A stretch of 49,586 nucleotides of DNA from Candidatus Altiarchaeales archaeon. GTDB taxonomy: Archaea; Altiarchaeota; Altiarchaeia; IMC4; SCGC-AAA252-I15. How positions within the stretch are numbered: position 1 is the stretch's first letter; each line of letters starts with the position of its first letter. The notes beneath the pieces are model-generated. The model was given only the letters and a program-made list of their open reading frames with translations. It was not told the origin of the DNA and did not search any database. Below are positions 5,237 to 30,300 of the stretch, one piece after another. Made by a program: the position numbers and the translations under genes. The stretch is from the NCBI GenBank assembly GCA_014729705.1, contig WJJK01000045.1:1-49586 (forward strand), written 5' to 3'.

Positions 5237-5485
5237 ATGGAACCGTGGAAAGCTATTCTATGCGACAGTGAAGAATGCATGAGCCTAATGTTTATTCCAG
5301 AAAACATGAAGGCTAAGAACAATAGTCTTACCCCGGAAGCCGTAGAGAAGTTTAAGATCTACCCTGAAATAGATACCAACGAGTTAACCCAGTTTACTTG
5401 TCCTCGATGTGGTAAGGTCACTACCTGGGGAATAACCAGAAGAAATGTAGCAAAGCAACTTTACGAAAGGTACTCTAATGTATGA
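5237..5485 (+). CDS. small zinc-ribbon protein
   Basis: CDSEEC...CPRCG cysteine pairs in an 82-aa protein. Confidence 0.5.
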   Translation: MEPWKAILCDSEECMSLMFIPENMKAKNNSLTPEAVEKFKIYPEIDTNELTQFTCPRCGKVTTWGITRRNVAKQLYERYSNV

Positions 5486-6362: not shown

Positions 6363-6656
6363 ATGTCCAAGAGATTAGAAGATGGTGTGTGGGTCGTAGT
6401 TTGTGATTGGGAGGACCCTAAAACAGGAGAAGGCTGTACCTTAGGAGTAGAAGGTAATCCCGCCATGTATGTTGACCCCGACGGAGGGCGTAATCCTAAA
6501 CTTCATTTCCAGTGTGGTAGACACCACGGGATAGTGAAGCAAGAAGAGAAACCTGAGTTCCAACTGCCTGAAGGACACAAGTTGAACCAGGAAGTAGTTT
6601 CCAGTGATGTAGATAAAACTCAAGTAGAAGAGGTAGAGGAAGATGAGCGAGAATAA
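6363..6656 (+). CDS. hypothetical protein
   Basis: 97-aa ORF immediately after the upstream stop. Acidic C-terminus. Confidence 0.45.
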   Translation: MSKRLEDGVWVVVCDWEDPKTGEGCTLGVEGNPAMYVDPDGGRNPKLHFQCGRHHGIVKQEEKPEFQLPEGHKLNQEVVSSDVDKTQVEEVEEDERE

Positions 6657-6933
6657 CCAGGAGGAAAAGTCCACCCTATCTTTCGGACAGTACACTATAG
6701 AACTTTCCAATGGACCCAGCATGGTATACAGAATAAATCAGGAGGGGCATAAGGAATGGATAGCGGCTTGTCCTGAACCAGAAACGGCTATGGCCGTAGT
6801 AGAAGGTATGGTACTAGTAGAAAACAAAAGGTTCTACTACCCAGACTCAAAACCAACCATAAATTTTGAGAATAGTAACGAACCAAAGCAGAATAAAGAA
6901 GTCCCCAAGTTTCTGCAAAGGAAGAGATCGTGA
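6643..6933 (+). CDS. hypothetical protein
   Basis: 96-aa ORF overlapping the upstream gene's end. Confidence 0.45.
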   Translation: MSENNQEEKSTLSFGQYTIELSNGPSMVYRINQEGHKEWIAACPEPETAMAVVEGMVLVENKRFYYPDSKPTINFENSNEPKQNKEVPKFLQRKRS

Positions 6934-8092: not shown

Positions 8093-8899
8093 ATGCGCCA
8101 ATATTTAGATTTACTTTCCTTTGTTCTTGAAAATGGTACTCAGAAGGAAGACCGCACGGGTACCGGAACAATCAGCCATTTTGGTTACCAGATGAGATTT
8201 GATTTGGGAGAAGGTTTCCCGCTGGTAACCACAAAGAAGATACATTTCAAAGCTGTTGTACATGAACTTCTATGGTTTTTGGCCGGAGATACAAACATCA
8301 AATACCTTCAAGACAACGGTGTCCGTATTTGGAACGAGTGGTCCACCGAAGACGGCCACGCCGGGCCAATTTATGGATGGCAGTGGCGCAACTTTGGTGC
8401 TGATTATAACGGACAAAGGTTGACTGGAGTAGACCAGATTGCTCAGGTAATCGAACAGATTCGAAATAACCCCGATTCTCGCAGGCACATTGTATCTGCT
8501 TGGAACCCTCAGCAAATAGATCAAATGTCTCTACCTCCCTGTCATACGCTATTCCAGTTCTACGTTGGTAGTGGTAAACTAAATTGTCAAATGTACCAAA
8601 GAAGCGCTGACGTTTTCCTTGGGGTCCCATTCAACATCGCTTCCTACGCCTTACTCACGCACATGGTGGCACAGGTTTGCGATTTAGATGTAGGTGATTT
8701 TGTTCACTCCTTTGGTGATGTTCACATTTATAACAATCATCTGGAACAAGTTAAGTTACAACTAACCCGAGAACCCAGACCTTTACCACGTATAAAACTT
8801 AATCCTGAAGTAAAAGATATAGACAAGTTTAAGTTCGAGGATGTAGAACTTGAAGGTTATGATCCTCATCCGCACATAAAAGGAAAGGTTTCCGTATGA
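8093..8899 (+). CDS. thyA: thymidylate synthase (ThyA type)
   Basis: MRQYLDLL...DRTGTGT...[11 protein letters not shown]...[21 protein letters not shown] are canonical ThyA blocks. At 268 aa the gene is uninterrupted. Confidence 0.97.
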
Positions 8900-11191: not shown

Positions 11192-11698
11192 GTGCCTAAA
11201 AAGAATAACAAACCTTCAAAAAGTGTGAACATCGACGCTATCAAAAGAGATGCTTCAAAGTTGGGCAAGCAGCTATCTAAAGAAAACCCTGCCTCTTTTG
11301 GAAAAGAACTTTCTCCGGGCTCTGTGCGTCGGGAGTCTCCTTTAGAACAGGAGATAGGAAGTACCAAATACCGGGAGATGATCCACCAGCATAATAAGAA
11401 AAACGAGCACATTTTGGATAGGCTCCCCTTTACTTTTCCCAAGAAGAAAGTGGTACGTTCCCACCTGAATGTGGTTGTAGAGTGTGTTGAATGTGGTCAC
11501 CAAGCTGTAGCTAATGAGAATACCGTAGGTATTACTTGCCCTGAGTGCAAGGACTACTGCCGGGTTATCAACCCCGAGCGAGAGAAGCGTTATGGGGACG
11601 AGAGCGACAAAGTGGGTATTTTTGGTACTGCTTCAGACCTTTTGGAGCTTCGAGAAAAAAGACGTGCATCAGAAGATAATGGGAAAAAAGAACAATAA
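11192..11698 (+). CDS. zinc-ribbon protein
   Basis: GTG start after AAGGAG. Contains CVECG...CPECKDYC. Confidence 0.5.
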   Translation: MPKKNNKPSKSVNIDAIKRDASKLGKQLSKENPASFGKELSPGSVRRESPLEQEIGSTKYREMIHQHNKKNEHILDRLPFTFPKKKVVRSHLNVVVECVECGHQAVANENTVGITCPECKDYCRVINPEREKRYGDESDKVGIFGTASDLLELREKRRASEDNGKKEQ

Positions 11699-11700
11699 AC

Positions 11701-11729
11701 TTGATAAATTTGTGATTTTCCTTTATTAT
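11701..11729 (+). promoter_or_regulatory. sigma70-like promoter candidate upstream of the NusG-like gene
   Basis: TTGATA (11701-11706), a 17-nt spacer, then TATTAT (11724-11729). Confidence 0.5.
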
Positions 11730-11754
11730 TGTCTTGGAAGTCGAGGTGGTACTC

Positions 11755-12288
11755 ATGGGCGAAAATAAAAGTTGGTATGCTTGGGTCATTAAAAGGAACC
11801 GTCTGGATAATGTGGTTAAGTTTATCCGAGAGCAGGTTCCGGAAATAGATAAGTACTTCTACCCTCTGATTAAAAAGGAGTATCAAACAAAGCGGGGGGT
11901 TCGTGTTAAAGACCGTCCCCTTTATGAGGGCTACATCTTCTTACGCTATAATGATCATGATGTAGTCTTTCACAAGCTAAGTGCTTACCCTTTCGTGACT
12001 ACCTACGCGGGGCCTGTTTCTGAAGATGAAATTGAAAGAATGCAGGCCTCCCAAGGTAAGCTTCTCACCGAAATCAAAACCAGTAAATTTTCCGCCGGTG
12101 ATCCCGTAAACCTCCTGGACGGACCCTTTAAGGGGTTTGAGGGGGTAGTCGTAGAGACTCAAGGGGATGCCGTCAAGGTGAGAATAGACGCTCAGATCCT
12201 TGGTAAGGGCGTGGAAATGGCTTTCAACGAGGATGTATTAGAGCGTAAAACTGAGCTGCAAAATACTGAAGTGCAGGATATTGGATAA
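11755..12288 (+). CDS. NusG/Spt5-like transcription elongation factor (NGN + KOW)
   Basis: ATG 11755 follows GAGGTGG; the track starts the ORF earlier, at 11734. The NGN-like part reads SWYAWVIK...RPLYEGYIFLRY...AYPFVTTYAG. The KOW part reads FSAGDPVNLLDGPFKGFEGVVVE...VKVRI. Confidence 0.8.
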   Translation: MGENKSWYAWVIKRNRLDNVVKFIREQVPEIDKYFYPLIKKEYQTKRGVRVKDRPLYEGYIFLRYNDHDVVFHKLSAYPFVTTYAGPVSEDEIERMQASQGKLLTEIKTSKFSAGDPVNLLDGPFKGFEGVVVETQGDAVKVRIDAQILGKGVEMAFNEDVLERKTELQNTEVQDIG

Positions 12289-12884: not shown

Positions 12885-13553
12885 ATGAGCAAAAAAACGG
12901 AAATCAACGAAAAAGATTTAGACAATAAGGCGGAAAAGGACCCTAAGTCCAAGCGCTGGAATAATGCCAATAGTCGTAAGAACCTGAAGCAGTACCAAAA
13001 AGATAAGAAAGAAGAGCCTGTAGTTCCCGAGGTTGTCTCTGAAGATGAGGAGGACAACACGCAGGCGCAAGCACTGGTTGTAGGTCGCAAGATAAGTCCT
13101 GATTTAGTAAAGAAACTCATGCCGCAGCGGGGAGTACTTACTGCAGCAGAAAAGAAAAGATTTAATGGTATTGTTATCACGTATTTGGCAGATTTTAAAA
13201 ACGAAGAACCAACAGCCGCAGACGTTGATGACATTTTCGAAATAGCCAAAAGCGACATTATGGAGACGCGCCTTTTGCAGGCGTCAAAAAGCGACCCTCA
13301 AGCTTTGGTTAGTATTTCTCAAGCTATTGAAAAGCTTAATAAGAGAAAGCAGCAGGCTAAAGAAAACCTGTCCAGCCGTCGAGTGGATCGCAAAGGAACG
13401 CGAGCTTCTGCTGACGTGAACATCATCGACCTTGTAGTTCAGTTTGATAGTCTCCGCAAGAATGAACAGAGAGACAAAATCGATGCTCTCATGGCCGAAG
13501 AGGACGAGACGTCGCAGAAGCTGCGGAAAGTCCTGGAAGACGACGGGTACTAA
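12885..13553 (+). CDS. putative small terminase subunit (by position)
   Basis: 222-aa basic/charged protein directly upstream of TerL and TAATG-coupled to it. Confidence 0.4.
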   Translation: MSKKTEINEKDLDNKAEKDPKSKRWNNANSRKNLKQYQKDKKEEPVVPEVVSEDEEDNTQAQALVVGRKISPDLVKKLMPQRGVLTAAEKKRFNGIVITYLADFKNEEPTAADVDDIFEIAKSDIMETRLLQASKSDPQALVSISQAIEKLNKRKQQAKENLSSRRVDRKGTRASADVNIIDLVVQFDSLRKNEQRDKIDALMAEEDETSQKLRKVLEDDGY

Positions 13554-16500
13554 TGCTAAAACAAGACGATCCCGAGTTTCTTTCTGCATCCGCAGAACTA
13601 ATACAATTCTATAGACAATACCCTGAAATAGCCGCAGAAGAACTTTTTGGAACTCCGCAGAAACCTTTTCGGTTATCCAACATCCAGAAAGTAGTCTTGC
13701 GGTCTATGTGGTTTAAGAACTACGTCATGGCTGTTATGTGCCGCGGCGCCGGAAAATGCGTAGGCAAGGATTCTTACATATTCACAGACCGTGGGATCTA
13801 TCGAATAAAGGACTTGATGGCAAAGACATCTGTCCTACAAGATGCTGATTTTTCTATATCTGATGGACAATCTCTGGCACCTGCACAAAAGGTTTACTAT
13901 GATGGTATTCAAACGGTCAATATTTTGGAAACATCATTGGGCTATTCTATAAATGTAACCGATGATCATCCATTACTCGTTATGGGTAGTTCTGGCAAGT
14001 TGGAGTGGAAGAAAGGCTGCGATATTTCAGAGAATGATTATGTGTGTATTTCACGAGGCGACAATGTTTGGTCTAACAAAACTTCTACTGGGCAACTAGC
14101 ATATTACTTAGGACTTTTAGTTGGTGATGGGTGTTTAACTCGACGGAACATTATATCTTTTTCTAGTGAAGATGATGAACTATTGTCTGAATTCTGCAGA
14201 CTTACTAAAGAAATATTTGGCTATGATGCCAAGATTAGTGCCCCGAAAGGTAAATGTCGTGAAGTTAGAATTTATTCTGTAAATATATGTGCGCAACTCT
14301 TAGGGTTAGGTTTAGATTATAGTAAAGCATCTGAAAAAAAGTTCCCCTCTTATTTATTAGATAAGGATAGAGATTCTATAATATCTTTTCTTCAAGGATT
14401 ATTTGATACCGATGGTACAGCAGATAGCAGAAGATTGGCAGTTTCTTTTTGTACATCTAGTGCCGAGCTGGCTGAGATTGTTCATTTATGTTTATTGAAT
14501 TTAGGTATAGTTTCCAGAAAAAGATTTAAGAAGAATAGTAAATCTGGTGCTTACATTATTGATTTATCAGGTAAGGATGCTGTCTTATTCAAAGAGATTG
14601 TTGGTTTTAGATTGGAACGTAAACAGAATATTCTCAAAGATAAATGTACGGATGTAAAAATAAACACCAATAAAGATGTTATTCCCCACCAACACGCACG
14701 TTTTTCCAGATTGTTTGCATCAACCTACGGTTTAATACCCAGAGAAAATCGACAACGCCTACATAAATACTCATGCTATTATGATATTTCCTATGAATCT
14801 TTGGACAGAACTTTATCCGATATAAACAAGAATGACGAAGATTTTTCATATTTACAAAAACTTCTAAAGTTAAATTATCGTTTTGATAAAATTGTGAAGA
14901 AGAGTCTTGCTGCGGAGGAAGTTTATGATCTTTGCATGCCGGAAGAAAATCAGCACGCATTTGTTTGTAATGGTTTTATTAACCATAATACTTTCTTATT
15001 AGGAACATTGGCGTGTCTAAAGGCTATGCTTTATCCAGGACACCGTGTTGGCCTTATTGCACCTACTTTCCGTCAGTCCAAGTTGATTTTTGACGAGTGT
15101 AATCGTATTTTTCAAAGGTCTCCTATACTACAGGATGCCTGTGAGAGAAAACCCACACAGCAGTCAGATAACTGCTACATAAGATTTAAATCAGTAGCCG
15201 GACAGCCTGGTTCTCTGGTTCAAGCTATTCCGTTAGGTGATGGTACCAAGATACGAGGTTCTCGTTTCTTTACCATTGTCTGCGACGAGTTTCCGCACAT
15301 TCCTGAAGAAATCTTCAATATGGTTATTCGTCCTATGGCCGCTACTGTTAGCGATCCCATGGAGAACGTAGAGCGTTTAGAGCAGCAGCGTGTTCTACTC
15401 GAAAAGGGACTTATAACAGAAGAGCAGCTGGAAGAGGAAACAAATGCTAACCAGATAATCATTACCTCGTCCGGCTATTTTACGTTCAACCACATGTATA
15501 CTTTGTATTGCGTCTACCGAGATGAGATGCTAAAAGGAAATCTAAAGTATGCTGCTTTCAGGGTTCCCTATACATTACTTCCTCCGGGATTTCTGGATGA
15601 GGATAACGTGGAAGCTGCCAAGAGGGAAATGTCCAGCCTTGAGTTTCGCATGGAATACGAGGCAGCTTTTATTCCGGATACGGATGCTTTCTACAAAGCT
15701 TCTCTTTTGGAGGCTTGTAGTAAGACAAGTTTCTCAACCCAGGTTGTGGGGGAGCCAGGAAAATCTTATTGTTTAGGTATAGACCCTGCTAGAAGTGAGG
15801 ACTCTTTTGCCCTAGTCGTAGTAGAAATCGGGCAGCCTGCTAAGGTAGTTCACGCTCTAGAAATCCACAAACAACCCTTCCCTAAGATGGCACAAACCAT
15901 TGAAGATCTTTGTACTGCTTTTAATGTTCAGCATATCTACATGGACTCCCAAGGAGGAGGTCATGCCATTAAAGACATTTTAGCAGAAAATCCTACCGGC
16001 AATCAATCTGGTCCCATCTTAGACCCCGAGGACGAAGTCCACCAGAGAAAATCAGGACGGCACATTCTAACTATGTGCAATTTTTCTACTGATTTTATTT
16101 CCGAATCTAACTACGCCGCTCTTAGGTTGTTGGAACACCGAGAGCTTCTATTTCCTAATGTTCCTAAGGATACCGAGCCCACTCCTGCGCAGGAAAGATC
16201 TTGGCAGACCATTCAGGATATGAAAACTCAAATGCAGACTATTGAGTTGAGTGAAACCCCTACAGGCAAGCAGCATTTTGATGTGCCCAAGGGAGGAGGT
16301 CACGGAAAGCAGAAGAAGGACTTGTATACAGCATTTATGTTGGCTGCACGTTGCGTCTATGACCTTGTGTGGTCCGAAGGTCTGCCCGATGAGATTCTGC
16401 ATCACGGTGGAGTGATGCAGCCCCGTAACAGAAATAGAAATGACAAAGAAATGGAAGACGCCTTTGGAGGCGAGATTCCTCAAGCCCTAAGAGATAAGAT

Positions 16501-16624
16501 AGAAATAGCTCAGGATCCGGAAGGTTTTAAAAGGAAGATGATTCACCAAGCCTTCCATGGAAGAAAGGTAATAACAAGCAGCGCTGCCTGTTTGACGCCC
16601 AAGCCTAAAAAGAAGGGGAAATAA
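13553..16624 (+). CDS. terL: terminase large subunit precursor containing a 411-aa intein
   Basis: The Walker A motif is split: CRGAGK | intein | TFLLGTLAC. Removing residues 69-479 restores GAGKT. The remaining 612 aa fits TerL in size and position. Confidence 0.85.
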   Translation: MLKQDDPEFLSASAELIQFYRQYPEIAAEELFGTPQKPFRLSNIQKVVLRSMWFKNYVMAVMCRGAGKCVGKDSYIFTDRGIYRIKDLMAKTSVLQDADFSISDGQSLAPAQKVYYDGIQTVNILETSLGYSINVTDDHPLLVMGSSGKLEWKKGCDISENDYVCISRGDNVWSNKTSTGQLAYYLGLLVGDGCLTRRNIISFSSEDDELLSEFCRLTKEIFGYDAKISAPKGKCREVRIYSVNICAQLLGLGLDYSKASEKKFPSYLLDKDRDSIISFLQGLFDTDGTADSRRLAVSFCTSSAELAEIVHLCLLNLGIVSRKRFKKNSKSGAYIIDLSGKDAVLFKEIVGFRLERKQNILKDKCTDVKINTNKDVIPHQHARFSRLFASTYGLIPRENRQRLHKYSCYYDISYESLDRTLSDINKNDEDFSYLQKLLKLNYRFDKIVKKSLAAEEVYDLCMPEENQHAFVCNGFINHNTFLLGTLACLKAMLYPGHRVGLIAPTFRQSKLIFDECNRIFQRSPILQDACERKPTQQSDNCYIRFKSVAGQPGSLVQAIPLGDGTKIRGSRFFTIVCDEFPHIPEEIFNMVIRPMAATVSDPMENVERLEQQRVLLEKGLITEEQLEEETNANQIIITSSGYFTFNHMYTLYCVYRDEMLKGNLKYAAFRVPYTLLPPGFLDEDNVEAAKREMSSLEFRMEYEAAFIPDTDAFYKASLLEACSKTSFSTQVVGEPGKSYCLGIDPARSEDSFALVVVEIGQPAKVVHALEIHKQPFPKMAQTIEDLCTAFNVQHIYMDSQGGGHAIKDILAENPTGNQSGPILDPEDEVHQRKSGRHILTMCNFSTDFISESNYAALRLLEHRELLFPNVPKDTEPTPAQERSWQTIQDMKTQMQTIELSETPTGKQHFDVPKGGGHGKQKKDLYTAFMLAARCVYDLVWSEGLPDEILHHGGVMQPRNRNRNDKEMEDAFGGEIPQALRDKIEIAQDPEGFKRKMIHQAFHGRKVITSSAACLTPKPKKKGK
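13757..14989 (+). mobile_element. LAGLIDADG-type intein in the TerL P-loop
   Basis: Starts at Cys (CVGKDSYIF), has a TDDH block B, LAYYLGLLVGDGCL and FLQGLFDTDGTA dodecapeptides, ends ...NGFINHN and is followed by a +1 Thr. Confidence 0.9.
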
Positions 16625-18511
16625 ATGGCGGACGACCTCAAAAAGCAGATTAATGAGAAGTTAGAACATGCCAAAATTCTCTCCCACGAAGAGGCCCGTC
16701 CTGGAGTTCACGAAATGGAGGTCGAGGTCGGCCCCGGTGGGAGATCTTTTCAGGATCTTGCCTACTTAAGCGGTGAAGATGGAGATCCTTCTCCTGTGAA
16801 GTTCTGGGAAGGGGGCCGTAACATCTCCCGCGATTGGCTTCGTCGCGTCGATTTAGATTTGCTCATTGGTAAGCCTCAGGTAGTTCAGGCTCGCCCGGAG
16901 CAGCTCTATGACAATGCTCTTAACACCTATCATTCGCAAGGAATGGTTGGTACCATAATAGATACTCTTACAAACTTTGCTTCCAAGGGATTTAAAAACG
17001 ACATAGATGACGAGGAGATTAAGTTATTCTACGATACTTGGGTCAGAGAAATAGGTTTCCAAGAAGTAGTAGAAAAAATCTTTTTTGATTTCTTTAGGGT
17101 AGGTACGGTCACTACTTTTAAAATCGTAGGTAAGTTTGATCCGAAACTAAGACCTGAAGATTTTGATAGAACTGTAAAAAATGCTTCCGCAAAAGCTCAG
17201 TTTAAAACCAACGCAGAAATGCAGCAGTTGATGGCTTATAGAGATTGGGCAGCCGCAAAAAAGGTTTGGTCTAAATCTTATGTGCCCCTTCACTATACTA
17301 TTTTAGATCCTCGTTTGGTTACTCACGAAGGGCCGCTTCTCTTTGATCAGACGCAGACTTTTCTGAAGCCAGAAGCTTTCAAGGAAATGAGAGACATTCT
17401 GAAAAAACCTGCTAGCCAGCGCCCTAAGGAAAAGCAAGAGGTTATAAGGAAACTTCCTACTGAGTTTGTAGAACAGATAAAAAAGAATAAACCTGTAAGG
17501 CTTCCCCAGGAGTTGGTAGGTAGGTGTGATTATAGAAGGCAAGACTACGAGCGTTATGCTAAGCCAAAGATTGCTCGTCTTTTGGATGACATTCGCTACA
17601 AGGAAGAACTAAAGAAGGCTGATTTTTCCACTCTGGACGGAATCACAAACTATATCCTCAAGATTACTATTGGAAATGACGACCACCCAGTCACGGATCA
17701 ATCTCAGCTAGAGGCGGTTGCTAAACTTTTTGATACCTCAAGTAAAAGTTTCGACATTGTTTGGAACCACACACTCCAGGTAGAGAAGATCACCTTTCCT
17801 GAAATAGATACGATTTTAGGACAGAATAAGTTTGCCCAGGTAAATGACGATTTGAGTCAAGCTTTCGGTGTAACCCGAGCACTTCTTGATGGACAGGTAA
17901 GCGGTAATGCTAAAGCCATAGAAGCAGCCACTAAAGCTTTTGCCGAAGAAATAAACTATGCTCGACGCTGCATAAAGCGGTGGATAGATCGTGAATACGA
18001 GGAAATAGCTCTGGCTATGGGCTTCACTCGTTATCCTAAAGTACGCTTCGACGAGAATACTCTCAAGGATGAGATCATGCTTATGAGTGTTGTTCAGGGT
18101 ATGATAGACAGGCGCATTATCTCCTACGAGACCGGTATCGAGAAGTTAGGCTTTGACTTTGGTAATGAGCTGTCGAACATGATGCAGGAGCATCCTATGG
18201 TTCAGGCAGGTGTTCTTGGTGTTATCGGTTCTCCTTATAATCCTAAGGCTCTTCCTCCGGAAAATCCTCCGGCCGAAAAGGACACCACCAAGGATGGTAA
18301 GGAAACTACTCTTACACAAGATGATTTGGAAGAGTTCAGAAAGAACATGGAGCAACAACTACAAGGTCTTAAAGATAACATACAGGAAGTTCAAAGAACT
18401 CCCAAGGGAACTCCAAGCGAGGGCCGGCCTCGAAAGGGCCGGGGAAAGCCTCGTCAGAAATCCACAAAACCCAACACTAGGCCACGCAAGCCAAATAAAC
18501 AATCTACGTAA
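16625..18511 (+). CDS. portal protein (by position and size)
   Basis: 628 aa with a TAAATG junction after TerL and a basic C-terminal tail. No motif verified. Confidence 0.6.
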   Translation: MADDLKKQINEKLEHAKILSHEEARPGVHEMEVEVGPGGRSFQDLAYLSGEDGDPSPVKFWEGGRNISRDWLRRVDLDLLIGKPQVVQARPEQLYDNALNTYHSQGMVGTIIDTLTNFASKGFKNDIDDEEIKLFYDTWVREIGFQEVVEKIFFDFFRVGTVTTFKIVGKFDPKLRPEDFDRTVKNASAKAQFKTNAEMQQLMAYRDWAAAKKVWSKSYVPLHYTILDPRLVTHEGPLLFDQTQTFLKPEAFKEMRDILKKPASQRPKEKQEVIRKLPTEFVEQIKKNKPVRLPQELVGRCDYRRQDYERYAKPKIARLLDDIRYKEELKKADFSTLDGITNYILKITIGNDDHPVTDQSQLEAVAKLFDTSSKSFDIVWNHTLQVEKITFPEIDTILGQNKFAQVNDDLSQAFGVTRALLDGQVSGNAKAIEAATKAFAEEINYARRCIKRWIDREYEEIALAMGFTRYPKVRFDENTLKDEIMLMSVVQGMIDRRIISYETGIEKLGFDFGNELSNMMQEHPMVQAGVLGVIGSPYNPKALPPENPPAEKDTTKDGKETTLTQDDLEEFRKNMEQQLQGLKDNIQEVQRTPKGTPSEGRPRKGRGKPRQKSTKPNTRPRKPNKQST

Positions 18512-18527
18512 GGAGGGATAGCAATCC

Positions 18528-21164
18528 ATGGTAGATAACAAAAACGTAGAGGAGGGAACCGATAAAGTTTCCGCCCGCGACCTTCTCAAGGAAATGAGAG
18601 AGTTCGCTATCACTGTAGGTGAAGAATGTCCCGAAGGGCATCGAAGAGACCCCAGCAGCGGTCGCTGCCTGCCTATCGGCAGTACAGATCACACTGCCTT
18701 TACTCGAAGCCTCAACGATGATCAAGGTGATGAGTGGAGAGGTCTTGTCGATAAGGACAACGAGACTTTTGATAACGAAGAAAATGTAGCAGATAGAGAG
18801 TCTGCTTCTAATACAGAGAAAGCAGTCGATGCTGATCTGATGGACGAACCTGAAAGTTGTGCCCACGGTACGACTTTTTCTTTTGTTCAAAGAAAATGCG
18901 TTTCTCCTGAGGAGGCTGAAGCTGAAAATAACGATGACAAGGCCATGACCGCCTCTGATGAGTACATTCTTGAGGACGCTAAGAACGGACACGAAGAGGT
19001 TGTTTCTAAGGATCCCCGCGGACGAAGAGATCCAGTGGGGTTTGATTGTCCTCCTAATCAGTTCTTTGACTTCAAGAGGCGTGAATGTATTCCACTCAAC
19101 AAAGATACCGTAATGGCTTCTATCGCTTCTGGTGGCCTGAAGGAAGAAGCTTTTCATGGTGTGGCTTGGACCTCTCCGGATCCTGTTGATGGCCACCGCC
19201 ACGCGGTTACTGTTGATATGGAAGGAAGTGGTAGAACTTCCGTGGCTGTTGGTGGAATCATGGAGCGTTATCCGCACAGCCATGATGTGGAAGATTTCGA
19301 GGTTATTCCCCACGAAGAAGGTGACTACACTTCCCGCCACCCCGGCGGTGTTAATCCTATGGCAGATACTTATGAGATGGAAGCAATGCCTTTGGTAGGT
19401 TCGGAAAGCAAGTTGATGACTGATGCGGAATACGCGGCTGACGAGAAGGAAGCCAAGAGGTCTGATCTTCCAGATGATGCTTTTGGTGTTCCCGAGGATA
19501 GGAAGTTCCCCCTCGATACTTGCGACCGTGTAAGAAACGCAATGGCTCGTTTTAACCAAGCCAAGGGGCTTTCTGCTTCTGATAAGAAGGATCTTAAGAG
19601 AAACATTCTTGAGCGTGCTCTTGAATGTAAGATAGACGTCGAGGAGTTCAAGAACGTAGGTCCTGATGTAGGAGAAGAGACCATCAGAAAGATCGAGAAG
19701 AAAGTAAACGGCTCTTCTGAGGAAGGAAAGAAACTTTCTACCAAGAAGAGGAAGGGGCTCCCTGCGAGCGCCTTTGGTGTTCCTGGAAAGAGAAAGTTCC
19801 CTCTCGATACCTGCAACAGAGTTCGTAATGCAATGGCTCGATTCAATCAGGCCAAGGGACTTACTTCCAGCGAGAAAGCGACTCTACGCCGAAAGATTAT
19901 GGCCAGAGCTAAGAGTTGTGGTATTAAGGTAGACGAGTTTGCCAAGGCTACTACCGCTGAGGATTTTGAAAAGGTTTTCGCTCAGCTTATTGTTCCTTTC
20001 CAGAGGGAAAAGGCTAAGCGCTTGGATGCCTACCACGCCGATAAGGCCAAGGATAAAAAAGGACCTTGCCCTCCAGGGATGGAATGGGATCCAAAGACTA
20101 AGCGCTGCATTAAGATGAAGGCTTTCTATGATAAGGTAGTCGACAAGGCCAGCCACCAGGAAATCATTTCCAAGGACCCTGCTGGTAGAAGAGATACCGA
20201 GGGCTTCCAGTGCCCAGACGGATGGTTCTTCGATTTTAAGAACAGAAAGTGCATCCCTCTTGACCCAGAAGAAAAGAGAAACTTCCAGCCTGGTGATACC
20301 ACTAAGGCCGCGGAAGAAGACGCTGCCAAGAGGGATCTTGCTCCCTCCCCTAAGGGTAAGCCTGCCCGACTTCCTCAAGATTGTCCAAAGGGAACTATTT
20401 GGGATCCTAGGCTCAGGAAGTGTCGTCCATTAGATCCTCCGGACGGTGCGCAACCTCCTCGTGGTAAAGCCTCTGATGATGAGGGCTCTACCAATCCCAA
20501 CGGCCCTGGCAAAGAGAAAGACACTAAGGGTTGCCTGCCTTTCCAGGTTTGGAACCCAAAGACTCAAAAGTGTGAGACGCGAAAGAAGCAGTTCAAAGGA
20601 AAGTCAGATTCTGAGAAGGCTGTTAACGCTCAGCCCAGCAATAGAGAAGGACTGGTTGGAGCCCCAGCCGGCAAAGTAAAGCATGCTACGGATTGTCCTC
20701 CTGGAACTATTTGGGACGGAAAGAACAGGCTTTGCAGGCCGCTGGACTCTATGGACAAGAGTCGTCCTGACGGAAACAGCCCCCAGAATCCGCAGAACTT
20801 TGCTACAGTAGAGGATGTTGTAGAGAACATGTCCTTGGCAAAGCTCATAGCTCACCTGGATCAGATCATCAGAGAAGAGGTTCAGGATACTCGAAAGGAG
20901 AAAGCCAAGGTAGCTGCTAAGGATCTTCCCAACGAGGCCTTCCCGCCTTCCTTGGTAGGCTCTACTCGCCGAAGTCTCATGCACCACTCTCCTGATGTAA
21001 CCGATCCTTATGACACCGGTACTGTGGATGTTGCCCGCCTTCGCAATGCCCTTGCTCGCGTGAATAAGATAAGTGGTTATTCGGAAAGGGCTGTTGATGA
21101 GGCTTATGATCATCTTCTATTCCATGCCCGAGAGGTTGTCGCCCAGCATTTGGGAAAAAAGTAA
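18528..21164 (+). CDS. head-module protein with 8 Cys-pair modules and a duplicated FPLDTC..RVRNAMARFNQ module
   Basis: 878 aa. Contains repeats of the form CPxGxxWDxxxxxCxPLD and two ~63-aa tandem copies. Confidence 0.7.
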   Translation: MVDNKNVEEGTDKVSARDLLKEMREFAITVGEECPEGHRRDPSSGRCLPIGSTDHTAFTRSLNDDQGDEWRGLVDKDNETFDNEENVADRESASNTEKAVDADLMDEPESCAHGTTFSFVQRKCVSPEEAEAENNDDKAMTASDEYILEDAKNGHEEVVSKDPRGRRDPVGFDCPPNQFFDFKRRECIPLNKDTVMASIASGGLKEEAFHGVAWTSPDPVDGHRHAVTVDMEGSGRTSVAVGGIMERYPHSHDVEDFEVIPHEEGDYTSRHPGGVNPMADTYEMEAMPLVGSESKLMTDAEYAADEKEAKRSDLPDDAFGVPEDRKFPLDTCDRVRNAMARFNQAKGLSASDKKDLKRNILERALECKIDVEEFKNVGPDVGEETIRKIEKKVNGSSEEGKKLSTKKRKGLPASAFGVPGKRKFPLDTCNRVRNAMARFNQAKGLTSSEKATLRRKIMARAKSCGIKVDEFAKATTAEDFEKVFAQLIVPFQREKAKRLDAYHADKAKDKKGPCPPGMEWDPKTKRCIKMKAFYDKVVDKASHQEIISKDPAGRRDTEGFQCPDGWFFDFKNRKCIPLDPEEKRNFQPGDTTKAAEEDAAKRDLAPSPKGKPARLPQDCPKGTIWDPRLRKCRPLDPPDGAQPPRGKASDDEGSTNPNGPGKEKDTKGCLPFQVWNPKTQKCETRKKQFKGKSDSEKAVNAQPSNREGLVGAPAGKVKHATDCPPGTIWDGKNRLCRPLDSMDKSRPDGNSPQNPQNFATVEDVVENMSLAKLIAHLDQIIREEVQDTRKEKAKVAAKDLPNEAFPPSLVGSTRRSLMHHSPDVTDPYDTGTVDVARLRNALARVNKISGYSERAVDEAYDHLLFHAREVVAQHLGKK

Positions 21165-21215
21165 GCGGGTGGAAGAATCATAGTCAGATTACTGACCCCA
21201 GAAAGTTCCACCCGC
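21155..21215 (+). promoter_or_regulatory. candidate -1 programmed frameshift signal (A_AAA_AAG plus stem-loop)
   Basis: The slippery heptamer 21155-21161 is in the zero frame, immediately before the TAA. A perfect 10-bp stem pairs GCGGGTGGAA (21165-21174) with TTCCACCCGC (21206-21215). Confidence 0.55.
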
Positions 21216-21589
21216 AGTGCAGACCAGAGGAGGTATTTGATCCGGACGCCGGAGCCTGTGTTCCTATAACCAATGTTAAGGGGGCGGACCCCGTGGGTAC
21301 TTTGGAATGTCCAGAGGGGTTTGTTTTAGATGAACGCCTTGGTCTTTGTGCTCCCGAAAATCCCACTATCCAGGCATCGTACAAAAAACCCAAAAAGAGT
21401 AAAAATAAAAAGACTTCTGCAATCGATCTTTTGCGGCAGGTCAGAAAAAATGCACAGCAAAAGTTTTCCGGCAAAATGGAGAAATGTATCCAGGATGTAA
21501 AGGCGGATCTTCGTAAGGATGATCGTCTTGACGAGTCCACCGTGAAAAGTCGAGCCATAGCCATTTGTCGTAGTCAGTTAGGAGAATAA
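21161..21589 (+). CDS. -1-frame continuation of the 878-aa protein (the track lists only 21293..21589 from a GTG)
   Basis: The frame is open from 21161 with no start codon before 21293. It still encodes two more Cys-pair modules, CRPEEVFDPDAGACVP and CPEGFVLDERLGLCAP. Confidence 0.55.
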   Translation, partial: VSGWKNHSQITDPRKFHPQCRPEEVFDPDAGACVPITNVKGADPVGTLECPEGFVLDERLGLCAPENPTIQASYKKPKKSKNKKTSAIDLLRQVRKNAQQKFSGKMEKCIQDVKADLRKDDRLDESTVKSRAIAICRSQLGE

Positions 21590-21591
21590 TC

Positions 21592-22110
21592 ATGCGTAAG
21601 ATTAAGAGAACACAGTATAAGGACAAGGCTTTCCATCTTCCTGATAACGAGAGGGAGGCTGTTGCTCGCGGATTGTTCCACTTAGTAGCTGATACTTTTG
21701 CCATGGCCATAAAGGGTTACCATTTCCATTGGAATGTTGTATCTCCTATTTTTGAAGATCTTCACGAGATGTTCCAGGAAGATTATGAACAAATTTTGGG
21801 GCATGCTGATTTGCAAGCCGAAAGAATAAGGGCACTTGGATTTTCGGTTCCCGGTAGCCTTTCTTCGTTCTCCTCTGAGAGTAGTATTATGGACCAGAAT
21901 GGACTTCCAGACTGGAGGTTTATGGTAGAGGAATGGATTAGAGATCACGTACACATGGCTCGAGAGGCCAGGCAGGTGCAAAGCGTGGCCGAAGCTGCTG
22001 GAGACCAGAACACTTTAGCCATGTTAGATAGCGTTATTCTTTTCCACGATAAAAGGGCTTGGATGTTTAGAAGTGTAGTCCAAATGAGTCCTGATAGATT
22101 TCCGAGGTAA
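21592..22110 (+). CDS. dps: Dps-family ferritin-like protein
   Basis: HFHWNVVSPIFEDLHEMFQEDYEQILGHADLQAERIRALG and AGDQNTLAMLDSVILFHDKRAWMF match the Dps ferroxidase and helix pattern. Confidence 0.8.
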   Translation: MRKIKRTQYKDKAFHLPDNEREAVARGLFHLVADTFAMAIKGYHFHWNVVSPIFEDLHEMFQEDYEQILGHADLQAERIRALGFSVPGSLSSFSSESSIMDQNGLPDWRFMVEEWIRDHVHMAREARQVQSVAEAAGDQNTLAMLDSVILFHDKRAWMFRSVVQMSPDRFPR

Positions 22111-22427: not shown

Positions 22428-22634
22428 ATGCCGGCACTACCAAAGGAGGTAGAAACTTCCATGAATATTATCGAAAAAAACGAGAGATTAGTAGAGCAAG
22501 AAAAGATTAGAGGTCTTTTCTGTGTCCAAACTATGAAGCAAGCCATCGAGGATCTAAACGAAGCTCTTGAAGAAGACTTGGAAAACTCAGAAGAGAAAAC
22601 CGCCCCGGCTGAAGCCGGGATGGGAGGAAAATAA
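22428..22634 (+). CDS. small acidic protein
   Basis: 68 aa, with AAGGAG upstream. Confidence 0.4.
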   Translation: MPALPKEVETSMNIIEKNERLVEQEKIRGLFCVQTMKQAIEDLNEALEEDLENSEEKTAPAEAGMGGK

Positions 22635-24067
22635 TGACTACCGAAGATAACAAGATCAGACTCTATGCCCCGATAGAAGTTGAGGAGCAAGTAGAGAAAT
22701 CTGCCCAGGAGAAGGCTTCTTTTCTAACCTTCCCAGAGGAAAAGCAGCAAGATCTGCAATACATCAGATCCTGCCTGGTTTCAGCAGGAACCAATAAAAA
22801 CGGAGCCCACTTTCTACCTTCGGAAATGATGCAAGCCCACAACACCGTAGTTAACAAGGCTATAGACATCGAGCATGAAGAGGAAAGAGTAATAGGTCAT
22901 ATTTACGATTGTGCCTATTTGTTCAAGGATGGTAGTCAGTTTGATCCTCTTAAGATTATGGCAGAGTACGAAGAGGCCCAGCAGGATCTCGACGATTTGG
23001 ACATCGACATAGCGATAGCCGGCGTTATTCATAAGATGCGTTTCCCAGATTATGCTGAAGAAATCTCCAATGGTGAGTGGAAAGTAAGCATGGAGTGTTT
23101 CTTCAAAGATTTTGACATCAAGATTGGTAGTACTATCATCACCCGCGACGAGGCCCAGGCTTTGGGTTACGATCCCAATCAGCTTATCGGAGGTTTCGTT
23201 AAAGTGGTTGCAGGCCAGAAGGCTTTAGGCAAGCACATGGTGGCTCGCGTTTTGCGCAACATCACCTTTAGCGGTATGGGTATTGTTAAGAATCCCGCTA
23301 ACCCTCACTCTATTATCATGGAGACCGCGTCTCACCGTGAGCTCATGGAAAAGGGTGAGCAAGTAGTAGACCTGGAACAGGTCGACAATGTGCGTGGCCA
23401 TCAAGTAGTCCTGTCCGAAAAGGCCGGGGAAGAAACCCAGGTTGACAAGGAGGAAAAAGTGGCAGATAATTTAGTAGAACTAAATCTTGCTTCTGAAGAA
23501 GCGTCTGAAGAGAAGCCCAAGCTTTATGTAGAGCTGGACAAAGAAACTGGTGGGATAAAGAGAGTTCTCACCGTAAGTCCCAATCAGGAAGTCGCTGCCC
23601 GCTGGAACGGAGGAGGTCTTCCCGGCCCTGGCAGTGTTTCTACCCAGGTAGACAGTATTTGTAAGAGCTTCAAGAAGAGAGTAACCAAGTTTAATGCTCT
23701 CGATCAGTCTGAAGCTGTTGTGGTTCATGAACACTGGTGCGCTCTTTTTGAAGAGCCTTGCCCCGTAATCGGAGCCTCTGCTAAAGCCCCTGAGTGTTTG
23801 AGGAACCAGAGAAACTCGGTTACCCGGGATCCCGAAAGTACAACCATCACCAAGACCGTGCGTGAGCACGTAGATGACGGTCCTGGAAATACTTTTACCA
23901 CCACCCTGCAGCAGCAGTGGACTCCTTCCTCTCCTCGTGCTACTGCTTCTGAAAATTCTATGACCGAACGCAAGGAGCAGATAGCGCGGCTTCGAGAAGA
24001 TGCCGAATCCCTACGAAACTCTATCAGAGATTTTGTAGTGGATGATGAAAAAAAAAGTTCAAAGTAG
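22634..24067 (+). CDS. putative prohead protease / scaffold-like protein
   Basis: Lies between portal and capsid. GTNKNGAHFLPSEMM...AIDIEHEE..VIGHI resembles the NxNGxxF...H block of T4 gp21-type prohead proteases, recalled from memory. Confidence 0.4.
   Translation: MTTEDNKIRLYAPIEVEEQVEKSAQEKASFLTFPEEKQQDLQYIRSCLVSAGTNKNGAHFLPSEMMQAHNTVVNKAIDIEHEEERVIGHIYDCAYLFKDGSQFDPLKIMAEYEEAQQDLDDLDIDIAIAGVIHKMRFPDYAEEISNGEWKVSMECFFKDFDIKIGSTIITRDEAQALGYDPNQLIGGFVKVVAGQKALGKHMVARVLRNITFSGMGIVKNPANPHSIIMETASHRELMEKGEQVVDLEQVDNVRGHQVVLSEKAGEETQVDKEEKVADNLVELNLASEEASEEKPKLYVELDKETGGIKRVLTVSPNQEVAARWNGGGLPGPGSVSTQVDSICKSFKKRVTKFNALDQSEAVVVHEHWCALFEEPCPVIGASAKAPECLRNQRNSVTRDPESTTITKTVREHVDDGPGNTFTTTLQQQWTPSSPRATASENSMTERKEQIARLREDAESLRNSIRDFVVDDEKKSSK
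24048..24056 (+). promoter_or_regulatory. A9 slippery run (candidate -1 frameshift or transcriptional slippage site)
   Basis: The sequence gaAAAAAAAAAgt places A_AAA_AAA in the zero frame, 3 codons before the TAG. Confidence 0.5.
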
Positions 24068-26165: not shown

Positions 26166-27233
26166 ATGGATAGAACAAAGCTACAAGAGCTCTTCAAGGC
26201 AACTGCGGCTATCGACACTCCTGAGGGTGTTGAAGCATATAAGGCCTTCGCGCAGGCTTTGACTGTACCTATTCTCCAGGAGATTCGCGATGCTTCGATC
26301 ATGCGTCAGCTGTTCGCTGTTGAGCGTCTTGCCCCTGGTGCGCAGGCAGTCTACCCAGTTGCCGATGACTTCGACATCCCGGTATTCGTTCTTCCGGGAC
26401 TCGGATACATCGCGCAGAACTTCGTTGAGGGTGTAGGTGAGGAAGTGTACGTACCTACTTTCTCCATCTCCGTTTCCGCGGACTGGAAGGTAACTTACGC
26501 ACGCGATTCCCGAATCGACATCCCTGAGCGCTCCGCACGAAACGCCGCTCGTGCTATTGCTGACTACGAAGAGGAGTCCGGTTGGCGAGTAATCGTTCCC
26601 GGTGCTACTACTAACTTCGCTGGTCAGGGCCTACTTGGTCCACGCAATGCTCCGATTTATCAGGTACCTACCGGCCAGACCGGTGAGAAGTTCCTCTCCA
26701 AGGAACTCCTAAACCTGATGATGGTTGGTATGAAGAGGGTACGCCGCTCTTTGACCGATCTTTACATTTCCCCTGAGGATGCCGCTGACATTCGTGAGTG
26801 GACTGATACTCAGGTTGATCCTATTACCCGACGCGAGATCTTCACCGCTTCCGGTATGGGACGCATCTGGAACATCAATCTTCACGAGGTATTCCAGCTC
26901 GGTGCTACTGGTCGATACAACATCAACCAGAACGGTGCTCAGTTCGGAGTATTCCAGGTTGATGGCTCTGGTGACTTCAACGACTATACTCCAACCAACG
27001 TTAACACTGTGGATGCTAACGGAAACGTTACTGCCGCAGGTGAGACTCAGGTCTACGGATTTGACCTCTCCGTTAACGACTCTCTGGTTATGCCTGTCCG
27101 CAAGGAGTTCGAGGCTCACGACGATCCTACTCTCCTTCGACAGCAGAAGCAGGGATTCTTCGGTTGGGAAGAGGTTGGTTTCGCCCTACTCGATTCCCGT
27201 ATGGTACAGATGGGTGTTATCGATCGTTCTTAA
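26166..27233 (+). CDS. major capsid protein (HK97-fold expected)
   Basis: 355 aa with a strong AAAGGAGGA SD, lying after the scaffold and decoration genes and followed by a large hairpin. Confidence 0.7.
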   Translation: MDRTKLQELFKATAAIDTPEGVEAYKAFAQALTVPILQEIRDASIMRQLFAVERLAPGAQAVYPVADDFDIPVFVLPGLGYIAQNFVEGVGEEVYVPTFSISVSADWKVTYARDSRIDIPERSARNAARAIADYEEESGWRVIVPGATTNFAGQGLLGPRNAPIYQVPTGQTGEKFLSKELLNLMMVGMKRVRRSLTDLYISPEDAADIREWTDTQVDPITRREIFTASGMGRIWNINLHEVFQLGATGRYNINQNGAQFGVFQVDGSGDFNDYTPTNVNTVDANGNVTAAGETQVYGFDLSVNDSLVMPVRKEFEAHDDPTLLRQQKQGFFGWEEVGFALLDSRMVQMGVIDRS

Positions 27234-27318: not shown

Positions 27319-30300
27319 TTGCCCAAACCAAACGCACTTCCTACTTATTCAAAGGATAACGTACTTTATGCCGATGAGGGGCTTTCTGATCTAACCCCCG
27401 TCGGTGTTATTATTTCAAGTGGTACGTTGATTAGCGGTGCATTGACTTTCGGCTCTTTGGTCGGAGACATTGACACTGCTAATGGTGCGTTCTCTGAGAC
27501 CTTAACTGTTTCCGGTATACCGGTAGACATCTCTGCTGGTGGTGGTCCTGGAGCGGGAGTTTCTTCTCTGAATAGTCAGCAAGGCGCTATAACCTTGCAA
27601 GGTCAAGGCGGGACTACTATTACTACCGTCGGCCAAACTATAACTATTTCTGGAGCCACAGGTGGAGGAAGCAATGACCACTCTGCCTTGAATAACTTGG
27701 ACTTTGCAAGTTCAGGACACACTGGTTTTGCGTCCGAAGCGGCGCTAACAACCACCAGCGGACATCTACAAAATCAGATTGATGGTATAGATGATCATCC
27801 CCGCTACACAGACGCAGAAGCAGTTTCTGGCACAGAGGCTGCACGGGTCACCCTTTCAGGGCACCTACAGTCGGAAATAGATCTAAACGCTTCTGCTATT
27901 CTGCAACTTGACGGTGAGGTTGGGGCTCTCGATTCCGAACTGGTTACGGTTAGTGGTCATCTACAGGATCAGATAGATAATCTGCCAGCATCTTCGGGTA
28001 CAGCAGCTTCCGTTAATGCGCTTCAGGGTAGTGATGGTATAACCGTAATCTCCGGTTCTAATGTAGATACTATCCAGGGTTTCCGTCCTGAGTTTATTGC
28101 AGCTTCAGGTTCTCTACAAACACAAATAGATTCAATAGATACAGGAAGTTCTACAGGCGGCAAAGCTCTTGTAGGCTCTGATGGCATTACGGTAGTTTCT
28201 GGGTCTAACCAAGTAGATATTCAAGGTTTCCGTGGAGAATTTGTGAGTGCTTCGGGGACCTTACAGTCCCAGATAGATAGTAACAGTTCTGCGACTTCAA
28301 TCAACACCTCTAACATTGCAGATAATACCTCGCAGATACTTACTACTTCAGGGCATCTTCAAAACCAAATAGATTCTATCCAAATAGACGAACTTGAGCC
28401 TGCTATCGTGGGTCAAGACGGCATAACGGTAACCAGCGGCACTAACACGACTCTTACCGGGTTTAGGCCCGAATTTGTTGCAGCATCTGGGTCTCTTCAG
28501 TCCCAGATAGATTCCCTTGGGGCATCTGAGTTAGATACTGCTATAGTTGGTTCAGACGGTATAGCTGTAGTCTCGGGTTCTAACGAAGTAGAAATACAAG
28601 GTTTTCGAAATGAATTTGTAGCCTCTTCTGGTAGTTTACAAAACCAGATTGATAATCTGGATGACATTTATGCTACCGATGCCGAACTTGTATCTGTTTC
28701 TGGGCATCTCCAATCTCAAATAACAGGATCAAGTGATTTACAATCAGCTTATGATGCTGGGGACGGGATAATCACTACCAGCAGCGGCAAGCCCGCGGAG
28801 CTGGATGGCACCGGAGAGTTGGTTGCTGTCACTGGGACCTTCACTCAGGGCTTAACTATTGGTTCTACTTCCGTTGACATCTATGAGAACTCAATCACAA
28901 TAGATGGGGACAGAGTAGTAGTTGAACCTGATTTCGTCTCTGCTTCAGGGTATTTGGACAGTCGTATTACCTCCATGGATCCTAATGGTATTAGTTTCAA
29001 AGGGGCTATTGTTTCTAAAACTAACAACCAGAATCTCCCCAGCGGCGCTAATACCCCTGTTAACTTTCAGTCTGTACAGTATGATCATGGGGGTTGGTTT
29101 GACGCTTCTCAGCCAACCCGTTTCACGGTACCTTCGGGTGTTTCCCGGGTAGTAGTTTTTGCTAATGTTAGCTTGGAAAATAGTGGGGCTACGGGTAAGC
29201 AGCAGGTTAAGATTACCCGTAATGATCAATTTGGGCAGCCCGGATTTCCTATTGCAGGACACGCTCAGGAGACCAGCTCGTCAGATGATCTTTATAATGT
29301 TTGCACTGCCCCGATAGAAGTAACTCCCGGTGACTACTTTGAAGTTCAGGTATTTCATAATCAAGGGGCGGGGATCGATGTTTTTGGGACAGGAAATACC
29401 TGGTTTGGTATTGCCGCAGACAGGACTGGGTTTGAGATTCCTCTGGTTGGTGCTGGCAACGTAACCGTAGTTTCAGGTACTGACGTTATCACTATTTCTG
29501 GCAGCGGTTCTGGAGGAGGTGATCTAACCGATGCCATCGTGGGTGCCGGTGGAAACACCGTCATCTCTGGTTCCAACACAGTCACTGTATCTGGATTCCG
29601 CGATGAGTTTGTGTTGGCTTCTGGCTCTCTACAAGGCCAACTAGACTCTCACACGGGCGATGCAACGCTTCACTTCACTGAAGCCAGCATCGACCACACG
29701 AACATTCAGAACGTAGGTAGTAATACCCACGCCCAGATTGATTCGCACATCTCTGATAGCACCATTCACTTCACCGAAGGCTCTATCGACCACGACAACA
29801 TCCAGAACAACGGGTCGAACAGCCACGCGGAGATCGATACACACCTCGCGGCTCTGGCCACCAGCGGAACTACTAATGCTTCTAACCTTTCCTCACACAC
29901 CGGGGACTCCACCATCCACTTCACCGAAGGTTCCATCGACCATGGCTCTATCTCCGGGCTTGGGGATGACGACCATACCCAGTACACGCGCGCGGATGGA
30001 ACTCGGGCGTTTACTGGTGACCAGAGTTTCGGAAGTAACAACATTACCGATGTGGACACTCTTTATGCCACTCTTATCAGCGGCTCTGAAGATGCCACCC
30101 TGGGAGACGCGGGTTTCGAGGGAGACGGGGTAGTAATCGATGGTACTCTAAGACGCTCAGTTCTGAAGTCCTCGGACATAGGAAGCAACCGTCTGATTTT
30201 GATACACAAGCATAGGCACGATACAACCTTCCCTCCAGCAGAAGCATTCTCCCGCTCTAATACAGACGACAATTCTCACGCTGCGGTGACTAACGGGCAA

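Follow-up and report, generated by a model that had tools for sequence, protein, structure and literature searches.

In several phages a structural protein is extended by programmed -1 ribosomal frameshifting. These include gene 10A/10B of T7, phage T3, the major head protein of Lactobacillus phage A2 and the Listeria phages A118 and A500, and the extensions are often repeat or adhesion-like (Ig-like) domains (PMC5009743; PMC10885494). Documented shift sites in phages and archaeal viruses are G_GGA_AAG/AAC and A_AAA_AAN, and in E. coli A_AAA_AAG has been reported as the most shift-prone heptamer (PMC5009743). Here we describe a locus on contig WJJK01000045.1, from a metagenome-assembled genome (MAG) labelled Candidatus Altiarchaeales archaeon; the whole 49,586-bp contig is referred to as the window. 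It carries a gene for an 878-aa head-module protein adjoining the portal gene (18528-21164, annotated as hypothetical protein MBD3260357.1 and, like all junction and extension features below, on the + strand). From comparison of its sequence with those of relatives we consider it very probable that a programmed -1 ribosomal frameshift gives a 1,020-aa isoform of this protein with two extra Cys modules.

Biologically the closest described cases are the frameshift-extended structural proteins of T7, T3, A2 and A118/A500. As in these, a morphogenesis gene has a major short and a minor longer product (the minor form being predicted here) with a shared N-terminus and extra C-terminal modules, and the shift is placed at the very end of the 0-frame open reading frame (ORF). 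The window protein is nevertheless outside those gene families: unlike the T7 10B type it is not the major capsid protein, which is encoded at 26166-27233, but an 800-880-aa protein adjoining the portal gene and without a cultured-phage homologue. Its extension also differs from the known ones, as it is built of C-x12-C hairpins rather than Ig-like domains and has a distal part that is swapped between lineages, with Dps/ferritin in some. With G/GT of phage lambda (G_GGA_AAG) the locus shares the heptamer class G_GGA_AAR, the -1 direction and a low-abundance fusion, again predicted here, as well as a frameshift kept across divergent phages despite sequence turnover (PMC5009743). The window gene differs from G/GT in lying between portal and capsid genes and not between tail tube and tape measure, in its size (878 aa vs ~100-150 aa), and in having both a strong stem-loop at 6 nt and a 0-frame stop inside the spacer.

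The 878-aa ORF ends with the codons CAT TTG GGA AAA AAG TAA, the stop being 21162-21164. Two overlapping slippery heptamers lie in phase here, G_GGA_AAA at 21152-21158 and A_AAA_AAG at 21155-21161. Downstream of the first come a 6-nt spacer (21159-21164), made up of one sense codon (AAG) and the 0-frame stop itself, and a stem-loop (21165-21215) which is the candidate stimulatory structure. Its 10-bp stem pairs GCGGGTGGAA (21165-21174) with TTCCACCCGC (21206-21215) without mismatch and encloses an inner hairpin of GTCAG (21183-21187) and CTGAC (21192-21196). The stem lies 3 nt from A_AAA_AAG and the canonical 6 nt from G_GGA_AAA. The junction folds with a minimum free energy of -26.9 kcal/mol (z = -6.6, -5.2 or -5.8 according to the segment chosen); none of 200 shuffles was as stable, and the fold is the most stable among 411 segments of equal size within +/-1.5 kb. 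The -1 frame is open from 21110 to a stop at 21587-21589 and has no ATG, GTG or TTG upstream of the GTG at 21293-21295, which is the database-annotated start of a separate 98-aa ORF (MBD3260358.1). Both ORFs are deposited as separate hypothetical proteins (locus tags GF334_01545 and GF334_01550). After a shift the -1 frame would provide 143 codons and a stop (21158-21589), read as a fusion only, and the predicted fusion has 877 + 143 = 1,020 aa, that is 142 aa beyond the 878-aa form. Slippage at either heptamer would give the identical product (...HLGKKVSGW...; ...AQHLGKKVSGWKNH...), with ...AQHLGKKVSGWK... as the predicted junction-spanning peptide, AQHLGKKVSGWKNHSQITDPR as the junction region and VSGWK as the tryptic peptide after ...HLGKK.

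An initial annotation of this DNA had proposed a -1 frameshift at A_AAA_AAG joining the 878-aa protein to a 142-aa Cys-module extension. Its reading of the end of the zero frame, the phase of A_AAA_AAG, the perfect 10-bp stem with its inner hairpin, the open -1 frame with its first start at GTG 21293, and a fusion of ~1,020 aa all agree with the sequence, and the proposed joining of the two parts is supported by the relatives described below. It should be noted that the heptamers alone occur in the window at chance level (GGGAAAA 8 vs 12.6 expected, AAAAAAG 19 vs 18.8), so that the signal is the conjunction of the elements and their conservation, not the heptamer. Taken from the single sequence, the evidence for a frameshift is thus suggestive but not sufficient.

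Related loci were collected by protein-guided scans of IMG/VR, JGI/ENA metagenomes and Logan assemblies, and the comparison set comprised 33 related loci with 23 distinct junctions, from 87% down to ~52% amino acid identity. The two-frame architecture is conserved throughout: by tblastn the extension was in the -1 frame relative to the main ORF in all 29 loci with both halves, in frame in none and in the +1 frame in none. This bears on the explanation that a sequencing or assembly error (A6 for A7) or an inactivating frameshift mutation has split what is really one in-frame ORF, or has left a decayed C-terminus. Homopolymer runs are indeed error-prone, the window is a single MAG contig, and an exact look-up of the 98-aa ORF in other assemblies found no second identical sequence. 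The 22 other distinct junctions, however, come from independent samples and have the same 0/-1 layout, most with an A4 run only and none in frame, which excludes an assembly error or a private mutation for the family as a whole and at that level settles the concern raised initially about the A-run. Were the window's own run A7, the window would be an in-frame fusion and the conclusion for the family would be unchanged. Further, at a synonymous divergence that is saturated the extension still shows purifying selection and is hence no decaying remnant. We regard this explanation as extremely unlikely.

The slippery site is conserved, but it is not the one first proposed. The pattern (C/T)TG GGA AAA nnn TAA/TAG was found in 19 of the 23 distinct junctions, while the four most divergent ones read GAA AAA AAA GAC TGA or ACA AAA AAA GCC/GAC TAA. 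In these four relatives G_GGA_AAA has been swapped for A_AAA_AAA with position and phase unchanged, although the encoded residues go from LGK to EKK or TKK. Every junction thus has an in-phase X_XXY_YYZ heptamer that permits re-pairing of both tRNAs. Only two third-codon positions are invariant in the final 40 codons of the main ORF, and both lie inside the heptamer; the third base of the codon before it covaries with the heptamer type (G with GGA_AAA, A with AAA_AAA), and where this codon encodes Leu its first base is C or T (CTG/TTG). A spacer of 6 nt, made up of one variable sense codon followed by TAA, TAG or TGA, is present throughout (23/23 junctions); in the relatives the codon is GCG, GAG, GAA, AGC, GCA, GCC, TTC, TCC, AAT, ATC or GAC. 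A_AAA_AAG was found at the junction of no relative and is present in the window alone among the 23 distinct junctions, because the spacer codon of the window happens to be AAG. Hence the probable functional site is not A_AAA_AAG but the conserved G_GGA_AAA one codon upstream. The overlapping A_AAA_AAG may add slipperiness in the window and, given its reported efficiency, the window may shift more efficiently than its relatives.

The site had also been called dnaX-type. Like E. coli dnaX, the window has an in-phase A_AAA_AAG and a stable downstream hairpin. It is unlike dnaX in that A_AAA_AAG is missing from all relatives, in that the hairpin is 3 nt from this heptamer rather than ~6, in that the junction sequences have no conserved Shine-Dalgarno-like element ~10 nt upstream, and in that the shift extends the product whereas that of dnaX truncates it. 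As A_AAA_AAG is specific to the window and a conserved upstream Shine-Dalgarno-like stimulator is absent, a dnaX-type cassette was ruled out.

The A-run could alternatively act on RNA polymerase, which by transcriptional slippage would produce an mRNA equivalent to a -1 shift. Such slippage is known from long A/T runs of bacteria and insertion sequence (IS) elements (PMC5009743), and the four divergent relatives have runs of A7-A8 and the window A6. However, 19 of the 23 junctions have just A4 (GGGAAAAG/T), far under the lengths known to support the process; such runs are too short for transcriptional slippage (PMC5009743). An RNA helix 6 nt downstream and the X_XXY_YYZ phase are moreover hallmarks of ribosomal shifting and irrelevant to a polymerase. 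We find polymerase slippage very unlikely, and infer from the same pattern that the programmed shift is ribosomal in nature.

The downstream helix is conserved in position rather than in sequence. Each of the 22 complete junctions has a helix that begins 5-8 nt past the heptamer and is 6 bp or longer (9 bp or longer in 12 of them); the junction segment was more stable than the local mean in 21 of 21 loci, with a median rank of 5.7%. The 5' arm is wholly different between clades (GCGGGTGGAA, GAGGATGG, GCACTGAGG, GCGCTGTGGG), yet a pairing partner is always present. The pairing GCGGGTGGAA/TTCCACCCGC, with the exact 10-bp stem, is common only to the window and L005, its closest relative. The L001-type clade has GGATGG/CCATCC only, or GAGGAT/ATCCTC stacked on a TCTGAC/GTCAGA hairpin; L006, L019, L020, L028 and L029 pair GCACTGAGG(GT) with (AT)CCTCAGTGC, the 3' arm being displaced by ~5 nt; and L018 pairs GCGCTGTGGG with CCCACAGTGC. 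The pairing of the downstream helix has thus switched register between clades. Two compensatory changes were seen, one G-C to A-U exchange in which both substitutions are synonymous in the -1 frame, and one A-U to U-A exchange between L018 and L019. Some structure at the position after the stop is likely to be under selection, judging from these comparisons. A check in relatives therefore bears out the position of the heptamer, the spacer and the position of the helix, but not A_AAA_AAG itself and not the exact stem, which recurs in L005 only. An Rfam scan of the junction gave no frameshift-element family, and its sole match was a chance small RNA (sRNA; E 0.89).

A GC-rich stem directly after a stop codon might instead be an intrinsic transcription terminator or an mRNA-stability element following the 878-aa gene. 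There is no T-tract after the hairpin and the terminator scan makes no call there; the stem is inside sequence translated in the -1 frame, and the next genes are on the same strand without promoter-like sites. We give this possibility hardly any weight at all.

The sequence after the stop is coding although it lacks a conserved start. For the 47 codons after the stop the ratio of nonsynonymous to synonymous differences per site (pN/pS) was 0.22 when read in the -1 frame but 1.15 and 2.0 in the two others, with synonymous sites near saturation among the relatives (pS ~0.8). Purifying selection in the -1 frame only means that this stretch is translated and is no decaying remnant. In 12 of the 23 junctions there is no ATG, GTG or TTG before the conserved first Cys module of the extension (module 9 of the whole protein), and the -1 ORF abuts or overlaps the end of the 0 frame without a conserved initiation signal. 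The frame change has to take place within 13 nt around the heptamer in L017 and L028, where a stop closes the -1 frame 3 nt ahead of the heptamer and the 0 frame ends 10 nt after the heptamer start.

These findings have to be weighed against two independent genes, the downstream ORF having its own initiation codon (the window's GTG 21293, or a GTG at -33 or a TTG at -12 in relatives) and heptamer and stem being incidental. NCBI annotates the 878-aa and 98-aa proteins separately, and a weak AAGG lies 11 nt before GTG 21293. The candidate starts vary in position, however, and GTG 21293 is not conserved as a start, being GTA in L001, L004, L005 and others. The 47 codons upstream of GTG 21293 are themselves under the selection just described, and there is no promoter-like site between the stop and 21293. 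Separate genes cannot account for the window, L006, L017-L022 or L028-L032, and leave the invariant heptamer, the fixed 6-nt spacer and the heptamer swap without explanation. We therefore judge two independent genes improbable.

Several observations do weigh against the programmed frameshift, or at least temper it. As regards initiation, L001-L004, L007-L012 and L027 carry a -1-frame GTG 33 nt upstream of the heptamer with AGGAG or AGGA at 8-9 nt, L005 has its TTG at -12, and gene callers picked starts of these types (P0001, P0005); independent initiation could contribute in the L001-type clade and in L005. The Shine-Dalgarno-like motif of this clade stems from Q-E codons, and AGGAG decays to AGGAA in several members. 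As regards the heptamer, X_XXA_AAA has been reported as less shift-prone than X_XXA_AAG in E. coli (PMC5009743). As regards the structure, the count of pairs kept on the window's 10-bp stem within its clade was not significant compared with shuffles, only the inner 6 bp of this stem are kept in the clade, the paired bases are also constrained as G-W and F-H-P-Q-C codons, and the junction folds of several relatives are just modestly better than shuffles (z -0.1 to -2). With such weak formal covariation we do not take the window's exact stem to be shown as conserved, and rate this claim below that of a selected position.

For the -1 frameshift we suggest the following course. The majority of ribosomes on the 878-aa gene would stop at the TAA at 21162-21164. 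The stem-loop 6 nt downstream of the heptamer would block the mRNA entry channel, so that a fraction would pause while the P site holds GGA and the A site AAA; both tRNAs could then re-pair one base back (GGG, AAA) and translation would continue in the -1 frame to 21589. In the window the overlapping A_AAA_AAG could also slip, with the same protein as result. The 142 aa added would comprise two C-x12-C beta-hairpin modules, a Lys-rich linker and a small two-helix domain. Both the efficiency and the purpose of the shift are matters of inference. The purpose is likely to be a fixed ratio of short to long isoform of a virion or head-assembly protein, the long form having a variable accessory C-terminus which is Dps/ferritin-like in some relatives.

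The modules of the extension continue those of the main protein. There are exactly eight C-x12-C modules in the 878-aa protein, and another two, spaced identically, in the extension, as had been noticed initially; the extension modules align to main-protein modules by BLASTP (E 0.002-0.01), and both give partial CBM_14 Pfam matches. Module 9 (CRPEEVFDPDAGAC) occupies 21218-21259, ahead of any start codon, and module 10 (CPEGFVLDERLGLC) occupies 21308-21349. The statement that both precede any start hence holds for the first only, as the second lies downstream of GTG 21293. They are followed by a Lys-rich linker (KKPKKSKNKK, 21383-21412), predicted to be disordered, and by a C-terminal two-helix domain (...KMEKCIQDVK...KSRAIAICRSQLGE, 21413-21586) restricted to the family of the window and its relatives. 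An AlphaFold2 model of the extension from a 3-sequence alignment was of low confidence (predicted local distance difference test, pLDDT, 61.5); in it each Cys module forms a beta-hairpin, the linker is disordered and the C-terminus is a two-helix hairpin with pLDDT ~80.

Like peritrophin-A CBM_14 domains, the C-x12-C modules match profile positions ~26-50 (CPxGxxFDxxxxxC), with a summed E of 1.8e-16 over the main protein. They are unlike them in comprising the two-Cys sub-motif only: no stretch passed individually, and the ~53-residue six-Cys domain with three disulfides is not present, so we do not place them in this family. Two stretches of the 878-aa protein do belong to DUF6582 (59.9 bits, the cutoff being 27.3), and a degenerate third copy resembling DUF6582 is at its C-terminus; a literature search found no paper mentioning DUF6582. 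Nothing informative came from NCBIfam and PHROGs for the main protein or the extension, a sequence search of the PDB with the main protein gave no match, and profile and structure-database searches gave no capsid-family match for the 878-aa protein. Separately, we observed a His-rich motif at residues ~210-290 of the main protein (window 19150-19400; DGHRHAVTVDMEGSGRTS...YPHSHDVEDF), which is kept in L002 as DGHTHLATLDAEGNGKTS...AHSHDVSDY. By its residues it looks like a putative metal-binding site, and it has no match to a known family.

A core of ~70 aa with the two extra Cys modules is universal among the extensions, the minimal one being 74 aa (L017/L027). The distal part is modular, its elements being the Lys-rich linker, a domain of ~45-60 aa ending KSxAIAICRSxLG and, in some lineages, a Dps/ferritin-like domain. 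The KSxAIAICRSxLG domain is present in the window, L005, L018, L022, L028, L029 and L031/32, and a HMMER search of 1.84 billion representatives returned only family members and one repetitive chance match (P0010), so that it occurs nowhere else in that set. In the window the ferritin/Dps-like gene is separate (21592-22110, + strand), 3 nt past the extension stop, and it is likewise a separate gene directly downstream in L005 and L028. In L002, L007 and L008 a complete Dps/ferritin-like domain is fused in frame to the extension (4849-5343 in L002, 3424-3918 in L007). The Dps domain of L002 has no plausible start codon of its own ahead of it, while L007 has a possible internal ATG with GGAG. In L001, L004, L017, L020, L027, L029 and L031/32 no Dps-like sequence was detected within 2.8-3.7 kb of downstream sequence.

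These fusions allow us to speculate that the frameshift is a stoichiometry device for loading or tethering cargo to the virion, where the variable C-terminus of the long isoform recruits a Dps/ferritin-like protein to the head. Fusion of Dps to the extension would make the link covalent in the lineage of L002 and L007, whereas the window's lineage, with Dps encoded by the following gene, could rely on non-covalent contact through the AIAICRS two-helix domain. In L002 and L007 the GTG at -33 could start an extension-Dps protein without any frameshifting, which weighs on this proposal, and we hold it to be doubtful.

The gene order is that of a tailed-virus head module: the large terminase (13553-16624) and the portal (16625-18511) are followed by the 878-aa gene, the ferritin/Dps-like gene, small ORFs, a 477-aa protein and the HK97-fold major capsid protein. 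The portal is ~23% identical to Bacillus siphophage portals. A blastn search of the region against 50,697 phage records gave no match, and tblastn of the 878-aa protein against phages gave only an 8% DUF6582 fragment and no cultured-phage homologue.

The content of the window as a whole is a tailed-virus fragment, with terminase, portal, HK97 capsid and tail-fibre-like genes, and as the contig has no terminal repeat the viral genome is incomplete. It is either a viral contig that was mis-binned or a virus of that archaeon. A NusG-like ORF (11734-12288) with a match to the bacterial-type NusG NGN family PF02357 hints at a bacterial host. GGGAAAAAAG recurs at 11681-11690, near the end of ORF 11192-11698 with the NusG-like ORF next in the -1 frame; this second copy was rejected as a frameshift site, as it is out of phase and the -1 frame meets a TGA at 11713; it serves as an internal negative control.

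Some other genes of the window and its relatives deserve mention. At 1,023 aa the ORF of the large terminase is unusually long. Its similarity to terminases starts around residue 480, the N-terminal ~490 residues being similar to helicase/endonuclease-type PHROGs; it may be a fusion or contain an inserted element. Directly after the capsid gene, a 1,841-aa ORF (27319-32844) has a pectate-lyase-like (RHGA/epimerase) domain and, from this match, is probably a tail fibre or spike with depolymerase activity. A 585-aa ORF (35109-36866) has Hint/intein-splicing and LAGLIDADG homing-endonuclease matches, i.e. an intein in a gene of the structural region. The ORF at 3-1061 reaches the left end of the contig (contig start ...GGACCTCAAGGACCCCAAGGTCCTTCAGGG) and gives a weak collagen-like G-x-y repeat match. 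Auxiliary genes encode a full-length thymidylate synthase ThyA (8093-8899, E 3e-125) and a GNAT acetyltransferase (5478-6362). Among the relatives, L007 has an HNH endonuclease gene (6121-6798) downstream of a 469-aa homologue of window ORF 22634-24067, without counterpart in the window. L027 and L033, which have the same junction, are on IMG/VR contigs of 196,567 and 297,725 bp; some members of the lineage may be jumbo phages, or these contigs may be integrated or chimeric assemblies.

As a mechanism the case adds no principle beyond known -1 frameshifting: its parts are those of a canonical -1 cassette, in which a spacer of about 5-9 nt leads to the stimulatory structure. For annotation, MBD3260357.1 and MBD3260358.1 should be one joined coding sequence plus the short form. 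For the biology of these viruses, the very probable frameshift would add recoding to a gene class without a documented case, namely a large head-module protein encoded next to the portal gene in an uncultured lineage of viruses. If the doubtful cargo proposal were true, the locus would parallel, in a phage, the loading of cargo into encapsulins, and the copy number would be set by how efficiently the frame shifts; in any event the fusion and fission of the Dps/ferritin domain on the extension give a testable hint as to what the long isoform is for. In addition, the family offers a natural experiment in the evolution of frameshift signals, in which two heptamers and at least three pairing schemes have been used around a constant 6-nt spacer with an embedded stop.

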